Source of the DNA: an uncultured beta proteobacterium | Lineage (GTDB): Bacteria; Pseudomonadota; Gammaproteobacteria; Burkholderiales; SG8-39 | Assembly (NCBI GenBank): GCA_963747775.1 | Contig: CAVVGT010000012.1 | Coordinates: 30,975 to 94,974 of the forward strand | Direction of reading: 5' to 3' | DNA length: 64,000 nucleotides | Part shown: one piece after another, positions 45,555-53,525 of the stretch | Position numbering within the stretch: the stretch's first letter is position 1 | Layout: each line of letters starts with the position of its first letter | Notes under the pieces: generated by a model | The model's input: the letters and a program-made list of their open reading frames with translations, nothing else | What the model was told of the DNA's origin: nothing | Databases searched by the model: none | Translations under genes and position numbers: made by a program

Positions 45555-46040
45555 ATGGACATTTCCGAGGTGGCGAAGCGGTCCGGCGTTCCTGCCTCGA
45601 CGCTGCGCTTCTACGAGGAAAAGGGCCTGATCGCCTCTGTCGGCAGGCGGGGACTGCGCCGCCTGTTCGATCCCGGCGTGCTGGAACGGCTGGCGCTGAT
45701 CGCACTGGGACGCTCTGCGGGCTTTTCGCTCGATGAAATCGCGCGCATGTTCGCGTCTGACGGGCGCCCGAACATTGACCGGCGCGTACTCTCGGCCAAG
45801 GCAGAGGAACTGGACGGGAAGATTCGCAAGCTGAGCGCCATGCGCGACGGCCTGAGACACGCCGCCGTCTGCCCCGCCCCGAGCCACATGGAATGCCCGA
45901 CGTTCCGCCGCTTATTGTGGGGCGCTGGTTCTGGAGCTATTGGCAAGCGAAGCAAGAACACGTCCGTTAAGTCAACGACGGCCTCAGTAGTGTCCGGATG
46001 TTTACCGCTCGATGTTCCAGAACTGCTTGATGCGAAATAG
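45555..46040 (+). CDS. MerR family regulator (C-terminus extended by IS4 insertion)
   Basis: MDISEVAKRSGVPASTLRFYEEKGLI; CPAPSHMECP. Confidence 0.92.
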   Translation: MDISEVAKRSGVPASTLRFYEEKGLIASVGRRGLRRLFDPGVLERLALIALGRSAGFSLDEIARMFASDGRPNIDRRVLSAKAEELDGKIRKLSAMRDGLRHAAVCPAPSHMECPTFRRLLWGAGSGAIGKRSKNTSVKSTTASVVSGCLPLDVPELLDAK

Positions 46041-47309
46041 GTAGTTCATGTTGTTGCCTGGTCTCGATTTCGACCGCGAGCACCGATTCTGCGACCCTGC
46101 GGAGCTATTCCTCGCGGGGTCGACCGATGAATCTGGGCAAGCTCGTGTTCTCGCAGCTCATGGGGCATCTTCCGCTGACTACCTTCCGGCGATGTGTCGC
46201 ACGCTACCGTGGTCATTTCAAGGTCAAGTCGTTCAGCTGTCTGGAGCACTACCTGTGCATGGCCTTTGCGCAGCTCACCTTTCGCGAGAGCCTGCGCGAC
46301 ATCGAAGCGTGTTTGCGAGCGCAATCCGCCAAGCTCTATCACATGGGCATTCGCAGTGCGGTGTCGCGCAGCACGCTGGCCGATGCGAACGAGTCGCGCG
46401 ACTGGCGCATCTACTGCGACTTCGCCCAGAGCTTGATTGGGATCGCCCGCCGGCTCTACGCCGAGGACTCCTTCGGCGTCGAGTTGAAGAACACTGTCTA
46501 CGCGCTCGATTCCACGACGATCGACCTGTGCTTGTCGATGTTCCCCTGGGCACCATTTCGCTCCACCAAGGCGGCAGTGAAGCTTCACACGCTGCTCGAC
46601 CTGCGCGGCAACATCCCGTCTTTCATCTTCATCAGCGACGGCAAACTCCACGACGTCAACATCCTGGACGAGCTCCTGCCCGAGGCGGGTGCTTTCTATG
46701 TGATGGATCGGGGCTACATCGACTTCGAGCGCCTGGCGCGCTTGCACCAGGCAGGCAGTTTCTTCGTCACCCGCGCCAAGTCCAACTTCCAGGCGAGCCG
46801 CCGCTACTCCGCTCCGGTCGACCGAACCACTGGGCTGGTCTGCGACCAGACGGTGGTGCTCACGGGTTTTTACTCCCGCAAGGGATTCGAGGAGCCGCTG
46901 CGAAGGATCAAGTTCAACGATCCGGAGTCGGGCAAACGGCTGGTGTTCCTGACCAACAACTTCGCGTTGCCCGCCTTCACCATCACCCAGCTCTATCGGC
47001 TGCGCTGGCAAGTGGAGCTCTTTTTCAAATGGATCAAGCAGCATCTTCGGATCAAGGCGTTCTTCGGCACCAGCGAGAACGCGGTCAAGTCACAAGTCTG
47101 GATCGCGGTGTCCGTCTACGTGCTGGTGGCCATCGTCAAGAAACGGCTCGATATCTCGGCAAGTTTGTACGAGATCCTACAAATCCTGAGTCTCACGATG
47201 TTCGAGCGAACGCCGCTGGATCAACTGCTTACGCTCTCTGCACCGGAGCCCGACACCTTGAATTCGGCTAACCAGTTGAGTTTGTTTGTCTAACATCCGG
47301 ACACTACTG
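45985..47309 (+). mobile_element. IS4-family insertion sequence, 1325 bp
   Basis: Perfect 18-bp IRs CAGTAGTGTCCGGATGTT / AACATCCGGACACTACTG; 9-bp TSD CGACGGCCT at 45976-45984 and 47310-47318. Confidence 0.95.
46127..47293 (+). CDS. IS4 family DDE transposase (DUF4372 N-terminus)
   Basis: LDSTTIDL, VMDRGY, YRLRWQVELFFKWIKQ (YREK motif). Confidence 0.95.
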   Translation: MNLGKLVFSQLMGHLPLTTFRRCVARYRGHFKVKSFSCLEHYLCMAFAQLTFRESLRDIEACLRAQSAKLYHMGIRSAVSRSTLADANESRDWRIYCDFAQSLIGIARRLYAEDSFGVELKNTVYALDSTTIDLCLSMFPWAPFRSTKAAVKLHTLLDLRGNIPSFIFISDGKLHDVNILDELLPEAGAFYVMDRGYIDFERLARLHQAGSFFVTRAKSNFQASRRYSAPVDRTTGLVCDQTVVLTGFYSRKGFEEPLRRIKFNDPESGKRLVFLTNNFALPAFTITQLYRLRWQVELFFKWIKQHLRIKAFFGTSENAVKSQVWIAVSVYVLVAIVKKRLDISASLYEILQILSLTMFERTPLDQLLTLSAPEPDTLNSANQLSLFV

Positions 47310-47314
47310 CGACG

Positions 47315-47437: not shown

Positions 47438-47899
47438 ATGCCCGAGGAGATACGTGCTGAGATCGACGACCTCTCCCTGATCAGGGAGCTCGTGCTGAAT
47501 CAGTTCCGCGGCCTCGCTTGGACGCGCGACCAAGAACCGAACTGGCAGGCGTTCGCTCAAGGGGTTATTCCCGACGCACGCCTTTTCCCTGCGGCGCGCC
47601 CGCTAAGGTCTCAAACGATCGATCAGTTCATCCATCGGATGAAAAGATTACGAGCCCAGGGTAAGCTCGTTTCGTTCCAGGAAACTCCTCTCGGTTGCGC
47701 CGTGCGAGTGTTCGGCAACGTCGCTGTCGCCTTCGCTGCCTGCGAGATGCTTGAGAACAACTCAACGGTGACTCGCGACGTTAGCGCCATCGTTCTTGTC
47801 CGAGACAGCGGCACCTGGCGCATTGTCGCGCAAGCGTGGGACGTCGAGACTGAATCGAACAGGATTCCGAGTGATCTCGCGACGCCCGCAACCCATTGA
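47438..47899 (+). CDS. NTF2-like/DUF4440 family protein
   Basis: GGAG RBS; VRVFGNVAVAF..LVRDSGTWRIVAQAWD. Confidence 0.78.
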   Translation: MPEEIRAEIDDLSLIRELVLNQFRGLAWTRDQEPNWQAFAQGVIPDARLFPAARPLRSQTIDQFIHRMKRLRAQGKLVSFQETPLGCAVRVFGNVAVAFAACEMLENNSTVTRDVSAIVLVRDSGTWRIVAQAWDVETESNRIPSDLATPATH

Positions 47900-47929
47900 G
47901 AGGCCCGCGACAGCTCTGTCGCAAGTGGC

Positions 47930-48013
47930 GCCCAACCGTCCGATACGGCGGACCGCTTCGCAGCGGGCTTGCGCCCGCCTGCTTCGCGGCCACTGATCGG
48001 GAACGTTTAGGGC
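47930..48013 (+). repeat. Degenerate attC site
   Basis: GCCCAAC..CCGAT..GCGGACCGC..GCAGCGGGC/GCCCGCCTGC..GCGGCCACTGATCGG..GTTTAGGGC. Confidence 0.72.
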
Positions 48014-48042
48014 TCGACCACACCCACGCACCGAGAGGGACC

Positions 48043-48678
48043 ATGGCAGACGATCCGATGTACCACGATGGGATGCGCCAGCTTCAGGACCTGCGCGAAA
48101 CGAGGCGCCTCGCTGATCGGCTGGAGAAAACGATTGTTCGCACAGCGTTCACCGACGAGGATCGCGCGTTCATTCAACGTTGTTCGATGTTCTTTGTGGC
48201 AACCGCAGACGGCCGCGGCCGTCCGGACTGTTCGTATAAGGGTGGATTGCCCGGATTCGTGCGCGTCCTCGACGGCCGCACTCTTGCCATTCCCGACTAC
48301 GATGGCAACGGAATGTATCGAACCTGGGGAAACATTCTCGCCAATCCTCACTTGGGGTTACTGTTCATCGACTTCGAGAATCAAAAACGCCTTCGGGTCA
48401 ACGCCACAGCGCAGATCAGAGCGGACGACCCTTTACGCGCCGAATACCCTGGCTCGGTGTTCATTGTTCGCATGACGGCGCACCGAATCTTCCCGGTATG
48501 CCCACGCTACATTCACAAGATGCAGCTTGTTGAACTCTCGGCGTACGTGCCGAAACCCGATTACACGCCACCGGTTCCTGCATGGAAGACTTTTGCCGAG
48601 TTTCGCGATGCACTACCAGCCCGTGACCGTGAAGATGACAGTAATCAGGGAGCAAACAGCCAGCCGACGAAGCCCTAA
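48043..48678 (+). CDS. Pyridoxamine 5'-phosphate oxidase-like FMN-binding protein
   Basis: FFVATAD..DCSYKGGLPGFV, PDYDGNG, CPRYIH; the stop TAA lies within CCCTAAC (attC R''). Confidence 0.9.
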   Translation: MADDPMYHDGMRQLQDLRETRRLADRLEKTIVRTAFTDEDRAFIQRCSMFFVATADGRGRPDCSYKGGLPGFVRVLDGRTLAIPDYDGNGMYRTWGNILANPHLGLLFIDFENQKRLRVNATAQIRADDPLRAEYPGSVFIVRMTAHRIFPVCPRYIHKMQLVELSAYVPKPDYTPPVPAWKTFAEFRDALPARDREDDSNQGANSQPTKP

Positions 48679-48700
48679 CCCGCGTATATGGACTCCCCCC

Positions 48701-48973
48701 AAGAAGGAAGAGGCTGATCGATAGTTCTGGCACGGAGGGAACGCCTGCAGTCGTATATCCGGCATCGTGAGTGGGCTCTGTGTGGCCCGTGCCGACATGG
48801 AATCTGCGAGCACCGAGGCGCCAATCGTTGCAACGGGCAGAGCGTGATAGCTCGCCACGCAGGGTTATCGGCGTCAGTCGGTGCGGGGGTGACCCGGGGT
48901 GCCATGGTGGGCGATCAGTCTCTACGCAAGCGATGGCGGGGTGAGTTCGTTCAGTCGAAGCGATCTCGCGCGC
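48701..48973 (-). ncRNA. Candidate bridge/seek RNA in the IS1111 3' non-coding region (boundaries approximate)
   Basis: ~270-nt NCR downstream of tnp; contains TAACCCTGCGT and TGCAACG (target-like) and GATTCCATG / GGATATAC (donor-like). Confidence 0.7.
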
Positions 48974-50068
48974 TCAGGCCGGGATCGGATAAGCGCTGCG
49001 GGTGATCTTCTTTTCCGGCCGTCGGATCTGCCCGTAGGGCGCGCTGTCGCGCAGGCACGCGTAGCAGATGCGCGCGAGCTTGTTGGCGAGCGCGCAGGTG
49101 GCCTTGTTGTGGTTGCTTCGTGCCTGCACGGCGAGCGCCCAGCTACGCAGCCCGTCGACTGCGCGGCCGGCCTGGGTGGCGGCGGTGGCCGCGCGCAGCA
49201 CCGAGCGCGCCCCGTGGGTGAGGAGCATGCGCAGATAGCGGTCGCCGCGCTTGGAGATGCGTCCGATGCGCCGCGTGCTGCCCGAGGAGTATTCCTTGGG
49301 CGTCAGGCCGAACCAGGCGGCGAAGTGGCGCGCGTCGCGGAAGTGCGCACGCTGCCGCTGGTGGCCGCCACCATGGCCGTGGCGGTGAGCAGTCCCACGC
49401 CGGGAATCGACAGCAGCGTCGTGCACGCGCTCGACTGGCGTGCCGATTGCGTCAGCTCGCGCTCGAGCTGCCCGATCGCGCGCCTCGAGCAGCCGGATCT
49501 CCTCGACGAGCAGCTTCATCGTTTCCCGGATGAGATCGGGAATGGCCGAGTTCGGATCGGCGAGCACCCGGGCGATCTGCTCCAGCCCTAGGCGCGCGCC
49601 CTGCGCGATCGCGATGCCGAACTCGCGGCAGAAGCCGCGCAGCGCGTTGATGCGCGCGGTGCGCGTGGCCATCCACAGCGAGCGCGTGCGGTGCAGCGCC
49701 TGGAGGGCCTGCTGCTCGACCGACTTCACGCGCACCGGGACGATGTCGGCGCAGCGCGCCGCTTCCAGCAGCGCCTCGGCGTCGGCCGCATCGGTCTTGT
49801 TGCGCTTCACGTAGGCGCGCACGTACGGCGCCGGCAGCAGCCGGACCTCGATGCCCAGGCCACTGAGCCAGCGCGCCCAGTGGTGCGCGCTGCCGCAGGC
49901 CTCCATCACGACCAGGCCGACGGCACGGTTGGCGAACCAGCGCTCGAATTGGGTACGCGTCAGGCGTTGGCGCTCGACCACGCGCCAGTTGGCATCGGCA
50001 ATTGCGAGCTGGAAGACGGACTTGGCGAGATCGACGCCCACGATGGGCAGCGCGGCGGTAGCATTCAT
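48974..50068 (-). CDS. IS110-family DEDD recombinase (compensating frameshifts ~49350-49475)
   Basis: GVDLAKSVF, MEAC, KTDAADA, GLTPKEYSSG, ISKRGDRYLR, ALANK; the LLSIPGVG segment is in an alternate frame. Confidence 0.93.
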   Translation of the reverse strand: MNATAALPIVGVDLAKSVFQLAIADANWRVVERQRLTRTQFERWFANRAVGLVVMEACGSAHHWARWLSGLGIEVRLLPAPYVRAYVKRNKTDAADAEALLEAARCADIVPVRVKSVEQQALQALHRTRSLWMATRTARINALRGFCREFGIAIAQGARLGLEQIARVLADPNSAIPDLIRETMKLLVEEIRLLEARDRAARARADAIGTPVERVHDAAVDSRRGTAHRHGHGGGHQRQRAHFRDARHFAAWFGLTPKEYSSGSTRRIGRISKRGDRYLRMLLTHGARSVLRAATAATQAGRAVDGLRSWALAVQARSNHNKATCALANKLARICYACLRDSAPYGQIRRPEKKITRSAYPIPA

Positions 50069-50200
50069 CTCGGACTCTCCTCGGTTGAGCGCTGACACCC
50101 CACACCACATGAGGCCAGCTGGCACGATGATGCCGAGAAGCCGGGGGGAGTCCATCCCATCATTCGAGATGGTGTTCCCGTACCTTCGCCGTCCGTCGCG

Positions 50201-50296
50201 GTCTAACCCGCGCTCCGAGCCGCAGGCTGCAAGCGTACCGCTTGCAGTTCCCTCCTCGCTTCGCTCGTCGGCCGCGGCTCAAGCGCCGCGTTCGAC
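50201..50296 (+). repeat. Degenerate attC site
   Basis: GTCTAAC..GCGCTCCGAGCCGC..CTGCAAGCGTACCGCTTGCAG..GCGGCTCAAGCGC..GTTCGAC. Confidence 0.78.
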
Positions 50297-50317
50297 GGCC
50301 TGCGTGGAGCCAAAGCC

Positions 50318-50406
50318 ATGGCACGCAACTTCTACATAATCGACGTCTTCGCAGAGCGACCTTACGCCGGGAATCAACTCGCGGTTGTCGTCGGCGCAAA
50401 TGGCTT
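50318..50406 (+). pseudogene. PhzF-family epimerase N-terminal remnant
   Basis: MARNFYIIDVFAERPYAGNQLAVV; GGAG RBS; directly after an attC. Confidence 0.75.
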
Positions 50407-50437
50407 CGCTAGGCGGCATAGACACAGGACTAGCCAC

Positions 50438-50845
50438 ATGAAGATCACCATTGAAACCGTCGTCTGTGCACCTGTTGAAGAGGTCTGGCGCGCTTGGACG
50501 ACACCGGAAGACATCAAGCAATGGAACGCCGCGTCCGACGATTGGCACACGACCGAGGCGTCCGTGGATTTGCGGGTCGGCGGCGCCTTTTCATCTCGCA
50601 TGGAAGCCAAGGATGGCAGCATGGGCTTCGATTTCGCTGGGACATACACCACGGTCGTGGCGAATCAGTTGATCGAGTGCTCGTTCGGTGACCGCGTACT
50701 GCGAGTTGAGTTTGTGGATCGGAACGGCGTCGTGACCGTACGTGAAACCTTCGACGCAGAGTCCACGCATTCCGTCGAACAGCAGCGCGACGGATGGCAA
50801 GCGATTCTCAACAGGTTCGCACGGCACGTTGAGAGCAGGCGCTAG
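50438..50845 (+). CDS. SRPBCC/AHSA1 family protein
   Basis: AGGA RBS; VWRAWTTPEDIKQWNAASDDW, QQRDGWQAILNRF. Confidence 0.9.
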   Translation: MKITIETVVCAPVEEVWRAWTTPEDIKQWNAASDDWHTTEASVDLRVGGAFSSRMEAKDGSMGFDFAGTYTTVVANQLIECSFGDRVLRVEFVDRNGVVTVRETFDAESTHSVEQQRDGWQAILNRFARHVESRR

Positions 50846-50950: not shown

Positions 50951-51101
50951 CACGATTAACAACCAGAAAGCGATCGGCGACGCATTGACGCGGGCGTTTG
51001 CACGCGCTGGGCCCACCTTCCTCGTCATCGATCGCGAACCATAGTGTCCATCCCCAATCGTGTGACGCAGCGCGGGTCGGCCACGGGTTTCTGGCTATGA
51101 C

Positions 51102-51182
51102 GCCCGACCCGTCGATGCACCGGCCCGCGCAAGCGGGCCGGTGCATCGCTATCGGTGGGCCGGTGCATCGCTATCGTTGGGC
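51102..51182 (+). repeat. attC-like palindrome with duplicated right arm
   Basis: GCCCGAC..CGATGCACCGGCCCGC-GCAA-GCGGGCCGGTGCATCG; 22-bp tandem copy ending GTTGGGC. Confidence 0.65.
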
Positions 51183-51289
51183 CGGTTGTCCGGGACTTCG
51201 TTTGAGGCGCGAGCGTTGTCCCCCGACCATTCAAAGGCGTGACTCAAACCCGCGGCGGTGCGGTAGCCGCGAGAGTGTCACGACGCCCC

Positions 51290-52025: not shown

Positions 52026-53381
52026 TTGGCGGCACTCCTGATCGGTCTTTGCCAAGCAGGCCAGGCGCAGGAAGCGCCGCGCGCGAGTCCTTCCACTCCG
52101 TCCGGCGGCGCGGTCACGCTATTTCAGAACGTCCGGATTTTCGACGGCAAGAGCGGCACTCTTTCAGGGCCGAGAAACGTCCTGGTGCGCGGGAACCAGA
52201 TCGAGCGCATCTCCACCGGTCCGATCCCGACCGATCGAAGCGCCACCACCGTGCTCATCGACGGCGGCGGGCGCACGCTGATGCCCGGGCTGATCGACAT
52301 GCACTGGCACACGATGCTGGTGCGGCCGACGCCCGCAGCGCTGCTCACGGGGGACATCGGCTACCTCAATCTCGTGGCAGGCGCCGAGGCTACGGCCACG
52401 CTGATGCGCGGGTTCACCACCGTTCGCGACATGGGCGGGCCGGCGTTCGGGCTCAAGCGCGCCATCGACGAGGGCATCGTCGCCGGCCCGCGCATCTTCC
52501 CGTCCGGCGCCATCATCACCGTCACCAGCGGTCACGGCGACTTCCGCCAGCCGTTCGAAGTGCCGCGCATCCTCGGCGCTCCGCAGTCTCGCGGGGAGCA
52601 GACTCGGCGCCGCCATGATCGCGGACAGTCCGGACGAGGTCCGCGTGCGCGTGCGCGAGCAGCTCATGCTGGGTGCGTCGCAGATCAAGCTGACGGCGGG
52701 CGGCGGCGTGGCGTCGCCCCACAGCCCGCTCGACGCGTCCACCTTCACCGAGGCCGAGCTGCGCGCCGCCGTTGAAGCCGCCGAGAACTGGGGCACCTAC
52801 GTCACCGTGCACGCCTACACGCCCGCCTCGATCCAGCGCGCGATCGCCGCCGGCGTGAAGTGCATCGAACACGGCCACCTGATGGACGAAGCCGACCGCC
52901 AAGCTGATCGCCGAGAAGGGCATCTGGTTGAGCACTCAGGCGTTTCCCGACGAAATGGCCGACGCGTTTCCGCCCGGCTCGTTGGAGCGGGCCAAGGCGG
53001 TGGAGGTGTTCGCCGGTACGGACAGAACCTTCGCGCTGGCGAAGAAGTACAAGATCAAGACGGCGTTCGGCACCGACATCCTGTTCTCCCCGAGCGCTGG
53101 CGCAGCGTCAGGGGGAACTGCTGACCAAGCTGGTCCGCTGGTACACCCCCGCCGAAACGCTCGTCATGGCGACCGGGACCAACGCCCAACTGCTGGCGCT
53201 GTCCGGGAAGCGCAATCCGTACCCCGGCAAGCTCGGCGTGGTCGAGGAAGGCGCGCTCGCCGACCTCCTGCTCGTCGACGGCGATCCGATCGCCAACATC
53301 AAGCTGATCGAGGATCCGGAGAAGAACCTGCTCGTCATCATGAAGGACGGCAGGATCTACAAGAATGCACTGCGCAAATAG
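52026..53381 (+). CDS. Exported metal-dependent amidohydrolase (Xaa-Pro dipeptidase-like), frameshifted
   Basis: MPGLIDMHWH, GFTTVRDMGG, QIKL, VHAY, IEHG, FGTD and GALADLL spread across four ORF pieces. Confidence 0.88.
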
Positions 53382-53460
53382 GGCCCGATCAGTGTGCGCT
53401 TCCCTGTTGCCCTTTCGTCGCGAGAATGACGCACACCTTGTCACCCTCACGAGCAGCGAC

Positions 53461-53525
53461 GCCCAACCATGCGTTCGAGGGGACCGCTTGTCGGCGCCGG
53501 GGTGCGCTCTAACCGGCCATTCAGG
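53461..53525 (+). repeat. attC left-half remnant(s)
   Basis: GCCCAAC-CATGC-GTTCGAGGGGACC, then a second CTCTAAC at 53507. Confidence 0.6.

Follow-up and report, generated by a model that had tools for sequence, protein, structure and literature searches.

In a 64,000-nt stretch of DNA from an uncultured beta proteobacterium of the Burkholderiales lineage SG8-39 (assembly GCA_963747775.1, contig CAVVGT010000012.1, positions 30,975 to 94,974; hereafter the window, whose own positions are used throughout), an insertion sequence (IS) of the IS110 family, IS1111 group, spans positions 48685-50162 on the minus strand, a length of 1478 bp. This element is very probably specialised for the attC sites of integrons and guided to them by RNA. 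An earlier reading made from the letters alone (the sequence-only reading) had proposed an RNA-guided recombinase programmed against integron cassettes, and the proposal is supported: it withstood both an examination of where the guide-like segments lie in the RNA and a comparison of guides with flanks across insertion sites. The evidence consists of direct observations on the anatomy of the element, on the structure of its RNA with compensatory changes, and on covariation between the target loop and the flanking DNA.

In the mechanism we propose, the DEDD/Ser recombinase would bind a two-loop bridge/seekRNA encoded by the 3´ non-coding region. In this RNA, the target loop would carry attC top-strand sequence (YAAC of the R'' box plus ~6 nt) on its 5´ strand and bottom-strand sequence across the crossover (the end of the L'' side plus CGA) on its 3´ strand, so that the two loop strands would read both DNA strands of a ~20-bp R''-N6-L'' segment. 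The donor loop would likewise read the abutted element ends, and recombination would place the element ~6 nt 3´ of the R'' box with the recombinase gene, tnp, always antisense to the cassettes. By analogy with published work on ISKpn4, ISPst6, ISPa25, ISEc11 and IS621, we infer that the RNA is made, binds the protein and directs the reaction.

Element ends, recombinase and occupied site

The element and its site comprise the following features.
48685..50162, minus strand: whole IS1111-group element (tnp and RNA both on the minus strand; end-to-end alignment with 12 full-length relatives)
50143..50155, minus strand: left subterminal inverted repeat, 13 bp, with an outward 7-nt extension TGATGGG at 50156-50162 (sequence; kept in relatives)
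48688..48700, minus strand: right subterminal inverted repeat, 13 bp, with an outward 3-nt extension ATA at 48685-48687 (sequence; kept in relatives)
48974..50068, minus strand: tnp, DEDD/Ser recombinase ORF, 364 codons (Pfam and NCBIfam matches)
48672..48684, plus strand: left part of the target, R'' box GCCCTAAC and spacer CCGCG (sequence; end of the PNPOx cassette)
50163..50168, plus strand: right part of the target, TTCGAG, with which an L''-like box begins (fold of the recomputed empty site)

Twelve full-length relatives align with the element over its entire length at 81-89% identity and keep its ends (TGATGGGATGGACTCC... and ...GGAGTCCATATA). The 13-bp inverted repeats (ATGGACTCCCCCC at 48688-48700 and GGGGGGAGTCCAT at 50143-50155) form a perfect pair. 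Their position is subterminal: 3 nt of the element lie beyond the first and 7 nt beyond the second. No target duplication was found at the window element, where the flanks (...GCCCTAACCCGCG / IS / TTCGAGATGG) have no repeat in common between CCCGCG and TTCGAG, and none was found in any of the 12 full-length copies. Both the repeats and the missing duplication had been noted in the sequence-only reading and can be read directly from the sequence. Its span for the element, 48686..50162, has the correct end and a start that is one base off: the A after CCATAT, base 48685, is present in 12/12 full-length copies, and the empty site CCCTAACCCGCGTTCGAG is obtained only with a start at 48685. The repeat length lies within the 7-17 bp described for IS1111 subterminal repeats (PMC11208160), and the non-coding region is longer downstream of tnp (289 nt, 48685-48973) than upstream (94 nt), the arrangement by which the IS1111 group is recognised (PMC11187229).

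The tnp ORF matches Pfam DEDD_Tnp_IS110 (PF01548, 5.7e-14) and Transposase_20 (PF02371, 1.9e-17) as well as NCBIfam NF033542, 'IS110 family RNA-guided transposase' (246.9 bits, in two stretches), matches that bear out the identification of a DEDD/Ser IS110 recombinase in the sequence-only reading. We take the catalytic D, E, D and D residues to lie in GVDLAK, VMEACG and KTDAADA, segments that are conserved in the protein alignment. The ORF also contains GLTPKEYSSG, an instance of the GL-P----S(t)G motif defined for the IS1111 group (PMC11187229); the first 25 positions of the PF02371 profile are out of frame in the window copy, and intact relatives match the C-terminal domain in full (NF033542, 306 bits).

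At the end of a PNPOx gene cassette stands an attC R'' box, and the right end of the element follows 5 nt to the 3´ side; an L''-like start follows the left end. This agrees with the insertion between R'' and L'' boxes described in the sequence-only reading. The occupied site is only the R''-spacer-L''-start part, half of an attC, and since the sequence past TTCGAG diverges, the site has no complete hairpin partner. In the window, as in ISPa25, tnp is antisense to the cassettes. An IS1111-attC group was reportedly described by Tetu & Holmes 2008 and Post & Hall 2009, with ISPst6 and ISPa21 among its founding members. The fixed position and orientation in attC that mark this group are found for the window element and at the sites of its relatives.

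The left extension TGATGGG is similar to YGAYGGG, the consensus with which right target flanks begin, so that the abutted ends (ATA/TGATGGGAT) look like the target (GAA/CGACGGGTT). In relatives L073 and L097 the flank literally reads TGATGGGTTAG.

A two-loop RNA module and its covariation with flanking attC sites

In 13 copies the final 300 nt can be aligned well save for one variable patch, and their RNAalifold consensus consists of two stem-loops, each with an internal loop. A covariance model of 166 positions (R1) was built from 29 diverse copies including ISPa25, and a search of 100 sources with this model gave 101 RNA matches. Among these 101 related RNA copies, compensatory changes on both sides were seen in 16/26 stem pairs. 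In an alignment that was fitted to R1 and hence favours the structure somewhat, 98.2% of the cells are paired, compared with 26-44% when the partners are slid, and 0/500 shuffles reach any of five structure measures. The window copy carries the following parts of the module.
48740..48910, minus strand: bridge/seekRNA module (covariance model R1, 165.3 bits, E 1e-42)
48857..48868, minus strand: target-loop 5´ strand AUAACCCUGCGU (unpaired in the consensus; reads as attC top strand, R'' box plus spacer)
48836..48856, minus strand: apical stem-loop of the target loop (compensatory changes in 4/5 pairs, 97 distinct sequences)
48824..48835, minus strand: target-loop 3´ strand CGUUGCAACGAU (reads as attC bottom strand over the crossover; covariation with the left flank)
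48795..48803, minus strand: donor-loop 5´ strand AUUCCAUGU (can pair with left-end bases ATGGGAT, with one G-U pair)
48751..48758, minus strand: donor-loop 3´ strand AUAUACGA (right-end terminus ATATA plus CGA)

The four guide and donor motifs of the sequence-only reading are all present, exactly where it had put them or at most 1-2 bases away. On the first internal loop, TAACCCTGCGT (reverse complement of 48857-48867) lies on the 5´ strand and TGCAACG (reverse complement of 48826-48832) on the 3´ strand; on the second, GATTCCATG (reverse complement of 48796-48804) overlaps the 5´ strand and GGATATAC (reverse complement of 48753-48760) the 3´ strand. Target-like segments therefore occupy both strands of one internal loop and donor-like segments both strands of the other, and the compensatory changes are in the stems; on the choice between loops and stems, which the sequence-only reading had treated as a test, this speaks for loops. 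The donor-loop strands and the element ends are essentially invariant in the family, and for the donor-loop 5´ strand the support is accordingly confined to complementarity.

Guide and target were then compared across relatives. Loop strands were extracted for each RNA match, together with the flanks where both ends could be found, and repeated sites were removed. Over 73 unique sites the target-loop 5´ strand has 228 positions identical to the right flank, compared with a permuted mean of 179.2 (sd 5.9), a match reached by 0/5000 permutations; the signal is clearest at guide position n4, where G-G occurs 20 times, T-T 25 times and a discordant pair 26 times. The match of the 3´ strand to the left flank at 69 unique sites was reached by 0-1 of 5000 permutations, both registers having been tried. 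In 39/69 sites the base preceding the conserved CG is identical to the final base of the flank, and all four bases occur. When each distinct guide was counted once, 20/24 (5´ strand) and 23/33 (3´ strand) were a better fit to their own sites than to those of other guides. The covariation between guide and target for which the sequence-only reading had called was thus found at both sets of sites. Relatives differ in guide type, for example in having TTGCAACGA-type or TTGGAGCGTG-type target-loop strands.

The sites themselves are uniform in layout. A GTT[AGT] box lies 4-9 nt beyond the right end in 73/76 unique sites, at a distance of 6 nt in 56/73, and when read in attC orientation the recomputed empty sites of relatives form canonical attC hairpins, the insertion point lying after R''-N6. 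Even elements with the same guide differ in the spacing between R'' box and crossover, which can be 4, 5 or 6 nt, and a register with one bulged guide base beats the contiguous register in 54/69 sites. The 3´ strands of both loops typically carry ACGA, as a result of which the donor loop fits the integrated right-end/flank junction (ATATA/CGA) better than the abutted ends (ATATA/TGA). From the variable distance and the advantage of the bulged register, we tentatively consider, with more doubt than conviction, that the crossover in this clade might be positioned by the target-loop 3´ strand together with a YG core, and that the 5´ strand might be anchored on the R'' box and tolerate bulges. The fit of the donor loop to the right-end/flank junction could reflect an RNA tuned to the excision substrate, or handshake-type pairing. 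In the passages considered from PMC11187229, PMC11208160 and PMC13626964, no IS1111 description was found of ACGA on both 3´ strands, of the donor-loop fit to the junction or of the 4-6 nt distance.

At the window copy itself, the 5´ strand AUAACCCUGCGU fits TAACCC-GCG^T only with one bulged U, and the 3´ strand CGUUGCAACGAU fits TCTCGAA^CGCG over AACG alone or, in the bulged family register, at 5/7 positions. The occupied site is one base short on the R'' side, and on the L'' side its CG stands against GC in the guide, an imperfect match just as the sequence-only reading had it. Both halves of the 'ideal' target TAACCCTGCG^TTGCA are occupied by relatives (right flanks CGCAGGGTTA; left flanks ending TGCAA). 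A search of the source genome for the target spelled by the guide gave four loose matches, none in attC context.

Several observations weigh against RNA guidance, or against parts of it. The matches of the window copy are short (TAACCC and GCGT with a one-base bulge; AACG), and mononucleotide shuffles of the non-coding region reached the top-strand match in 84/2000 cases and the bottom-strand match in 1092/2000. These matches are not clearly above chance, and the above-chance support consequently comes from the family comparison. In that comparison, guide position n6 matches the target in only 9/58 sites, the 3´-strand covariation is modest (23/33 guides; p about 0.02-0.04), and the permutation figures overstate significance because related elements and hosts are not independent. 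The near-invariance of the donor-loop strands means that covariation cannot support the donor loop, and RNAalifold pairs parts of these strands with each other. The single-sequence fold of the window RNA is not unusually stable (z = -1.34; 21/200 shuffles as stable), and a consensus scan of 48600-50300 detected neither a promoter-like nor a terminator-like site. In relatives the RNA region is covered by RNA-library contigs, but contigs are no proof of transcription.

Other searches of the region gave little. No Rfam family reaches its gathering score anywhere in the window, and inspection of the abutted element ends by eye revealed no convincing -35/-10 pair. The RNA-library contigs matching relatives (runs X15 and X20) are deepest over the donor-loop part, window 48744-48817, which is a hint and no proof of transcription.

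Integron surroundings and competing explanations

The element lies among short genes separated by attC-like sites, in a stretch lower in G+C (0.53-0.65 compared with ~0.70). Its neighbourhood and the solo fragments of the element elsewhere in the source genome (G000) include the following.
47896-48678, plus strand: PNPOx cassette ORF (Pfam PNPOx_N)
47930..48013, plus strand: canonical attC upstream of the PNPOx cassette, GCCCAAC ... GTTTAGGGC (DNA fold)
50201..50296, plus strand: complete attC, GTCTAAC ... GTTCGAC, 38 nt downstream of the insertion (sequence and fold)
50318-50845: AHSA1/SRPBCC cassette, preceded by the complete attC at 50201-50296
G000 contigs C3:636920-637037, C9:387479-387554 and C4:299573-299627: solo right-end fragments (L003-L005)

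The attC at 47930-48013 folds as DNA at -24.2 kcal/mol with its R and L boxes paired and with extrahelical bases, and that at 50201-50296 is of the same type as in relatives L014 and L022. No integron integrase was found within the 64-kb window. The only integron integrase gene of the genome is on another contig (C3), split by a frameshift into 487811-488227 and 488229-488753, and 2.3 kb from it lies a truncated relative of the element (C3 485047-488753; L002, L007, L008 and L045). This relative keeps the full RNA module and only the last ~50 tnp codons, the remnant being fused to the start of a different IS110-type gene.

All five right ends in the source genome (5/5), including one 2.3 kb from the frameshifted integron integrase gene, abut the R''-box complement. 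The three solo fragments are 55-118 bp long and each abut this complement (GGTTAG...); the longest starts exactly at the donor-loop 5´ strand. A recombination hot spot at the donor-loop start was considered and dropped, the break of relative L013 at that point being an unrelated IS3-family insertion. Recombinase-less modules of RNA plus right end also occur in relatives (L097 2727-3434, L057 554-774 and L075 655-857), and L097 carries two identical ones in tandem.

The window copy of tnp is frameshifted, as the sequence-only reading had remarked: comparison with five relatives reveals a one-base insertion near 49478 and a one-base deletion near 49346. These indels compensate each other exactly, and in the protein alignment the ~44 codons between them, with the IPGVG segment, are out of frame; this middle segment with IPGVG is still recognisable in another frame. 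The source genome has no intact cognate recombinase, and its two other IS110-family genes belong to other lineages. With tnp broken in this way, the window copy is probably dead, to judge from its sequence, and most likely immobile unless the frameshifts are assembly errors. Such errors, which would leave the copy intact and active, are conceivable and on present evidence rather unlikely. Frame breaks are also seen in many relatives from metagenome-assembled genomes, the integron integrase and amidohydrolase genes of the same genome are likewise split, and the exact compensation between the two indels is also what such errors might give; set against this, neither indel lies within a homopolymer run and the long housekeeping ORFs of the window are intact. 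Contigs of one soil run (X1) span both element junctions with 0-1 differences and cover neither indel position, and in the sequencing-run search no run contained more than 0.28 of the sampled words. The amidohydrolase-like gene (a label read from the translation) is spread over three overlapping frames (ORFs 52026-52775, 52615-53124 and 52928-53512), and the split over 52026-53512 marks either a pseudogene or local assembly indel errors.

We also considered whether the position of the element says anything about targeting. If the copy were a fossil brought to its present position by a later rearrangement, for example a deletion fusing an occupied attC to unrelated DNA, the imperfect match would say nothing on mismatch tolerance. 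The half attC only 38 nt from a complete one is in keeping with such a history, as are the frameshifted tnp and the presence nearby of another IS and of broken-looking genes. Both junctions are typical of the family, however: 5 nt separate the R'' box from the right end, and the left end is followed by TTCGAG, in agreement with the CTCGA(A/G) left flanks of relatives L048, L013 and L014, which have the same guide. Any deletion would have to begin more than 6 nt beyond the left end. We therefore think a rearrangement improbable. Far more remote is the view that the recombinase recognises attC by protein-DNA contacts or as a folded single-stranded hairpin, the likeness between RNA and attC being a leftover of a captured attC with no guiding role. 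attC is structured and is recognised by IntI and by group IIC-attC introns, and the near-chance matches of the window copy would be expected if there were no guide. Yet the matching segments are on loop strands of a structure with compensatory changes, they track the flanks over 69-73 sites, and the window site was used though the other half of the hairpin is missing. In addition, experiments showed that ISEc11 depends on its RNA and recovered seekRNAs together with the transposases of ISKpn4 and ISPst6 (PMC11187229). Guidance by the RNA would account for these observations and is the reading we retain.

Two further features of the cassette region stand apart from the element. A second insertion sequence at 46008-47312 encodes a DDE transposase (DUF4372 and DDE_Tnp_1; ORF 46127-47293), has ~18-bp terminal inverted repeats (CAGTAGTGTCCGGATGTT) and a 9-bp direct repeat CGACGGCCT, and is inserted beside another R''-like box, GGCCTAACAATTCG. 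At 51100-51185, a ~24-bp tandem duplication (GGCCGGTGCATCGCTATCG...) lies in a palindromic stretch between cassette-like genes.

Known elements, clade and significance

The closest named element found is ISPa25, a member of the attC-targeting IS1111 group found in class 1 integrons of Pseudomonas aeruginosa, where it occupies the attC of a cassette. The two share their terminal sequences (TGATGG... and ...GTCCATATA), a two-loop RNA (98 bits to model R1 for ISPa25, which is among the 29 seed sequences), the insertion point after R''-N6 and the orientation of tnp antisense to the cassettes. In contrast, the recombinases are only 48% identical, and the target-loop strands of ISPa25, TAACAAT and GCTTGAACGA, fit class 1 attC sites, whereas those of the window element, TAACCCTGCG and GTTGCAACGA, fit GC-rich betaproteobacterial attC sites. 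For ISPa25, a seekRNA was predicted with the same target matches as that of ISKpn4 (PMC11187229).

ISKpn4 and ISPst6 likewise have attC targets and a non-coding region downstream of tnp. The seekRNAs that co-purified with their transposases have the top-strand match 5´ of the bottom-strand match (PMC11187229), the order found in the window RNA. Compared by description only, the published short seekRNAs are 82-86 nt, whereas the window module has 166 positions and a second loop. Reprogramming of ISEc11 needed changes in both the RNA and the donor flanks (PMC11187229), and for 93% of IS1111 elements a bridge RNA was predicted in the right end (Durrant et al., PMC11208160). The bridge RNA of IS621, of the IS110 group, also has two internal loops that each read both DNA strands (PMC11208160); its loop strands overlap at the crossover, and 'handshake' bases can pair with the partner DNA (PMC11208160, PMC13626964). 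IS621 differs in having its RNA upstream of the recombinase gene, a reversed order of strand matches, subterminal repeats of only 2-3 bp and a defined CT core; the crossover of the window element is at YG, with CG in the targets and both guides and TG at the left end. ISPpu9 of Pseudomonas putida, also of the IS110 family, encodes its Ssr9 RNA downstream of tnp, and additional copies of that RNA gene stand alone in the genome (PMC12288879). Solo RNA or right-end modules resembling these ssr9 copies occur in the window genome and in L057, L075 and L097, although ISPpu9 targets REP sequences, not attC.

Relatives of the element are numerous. A DNA search of 201 same-family genomes gave, besides the 12 full-length copies (81-89% identity), a set of more distant ones (71-73%), and a protein-pattern scan of one genome per species confirmed at least 518 relatives, mostly in Burkholderiales and Rhodocyclales assemblies. 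In the plasmid collection ISPa25 was the only close named element. The element is a member of an abundant, apparently unnamed betaproteobacterial clade of attC-targeting IS1111 elements.

The mechanism is not a new one: reports that IS1111 elements target attC by RNA guidance date back to 2024. It was published for the attC-targeting elements ISKpn4, ISPst6 and ISPa25 (Siddiquee 2024), and the novelty implied by the sequence-only reading was overrated, attC-targeting seekRNAs being described already in PMC11187229. The value of the clade is as a natural data set, with ~70 independent insertion sites, 24-33 distinct guide variants and at least 518 relatives. The sites display the natural tolerance of such an RNA to mismatch, wobble and register shift, and indicate that half an attC suffices as a target. 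Such data may be of use in the design of bridge/seek recombinases and in the annotation of chromosomal integrons disrupted by elements of this kind.

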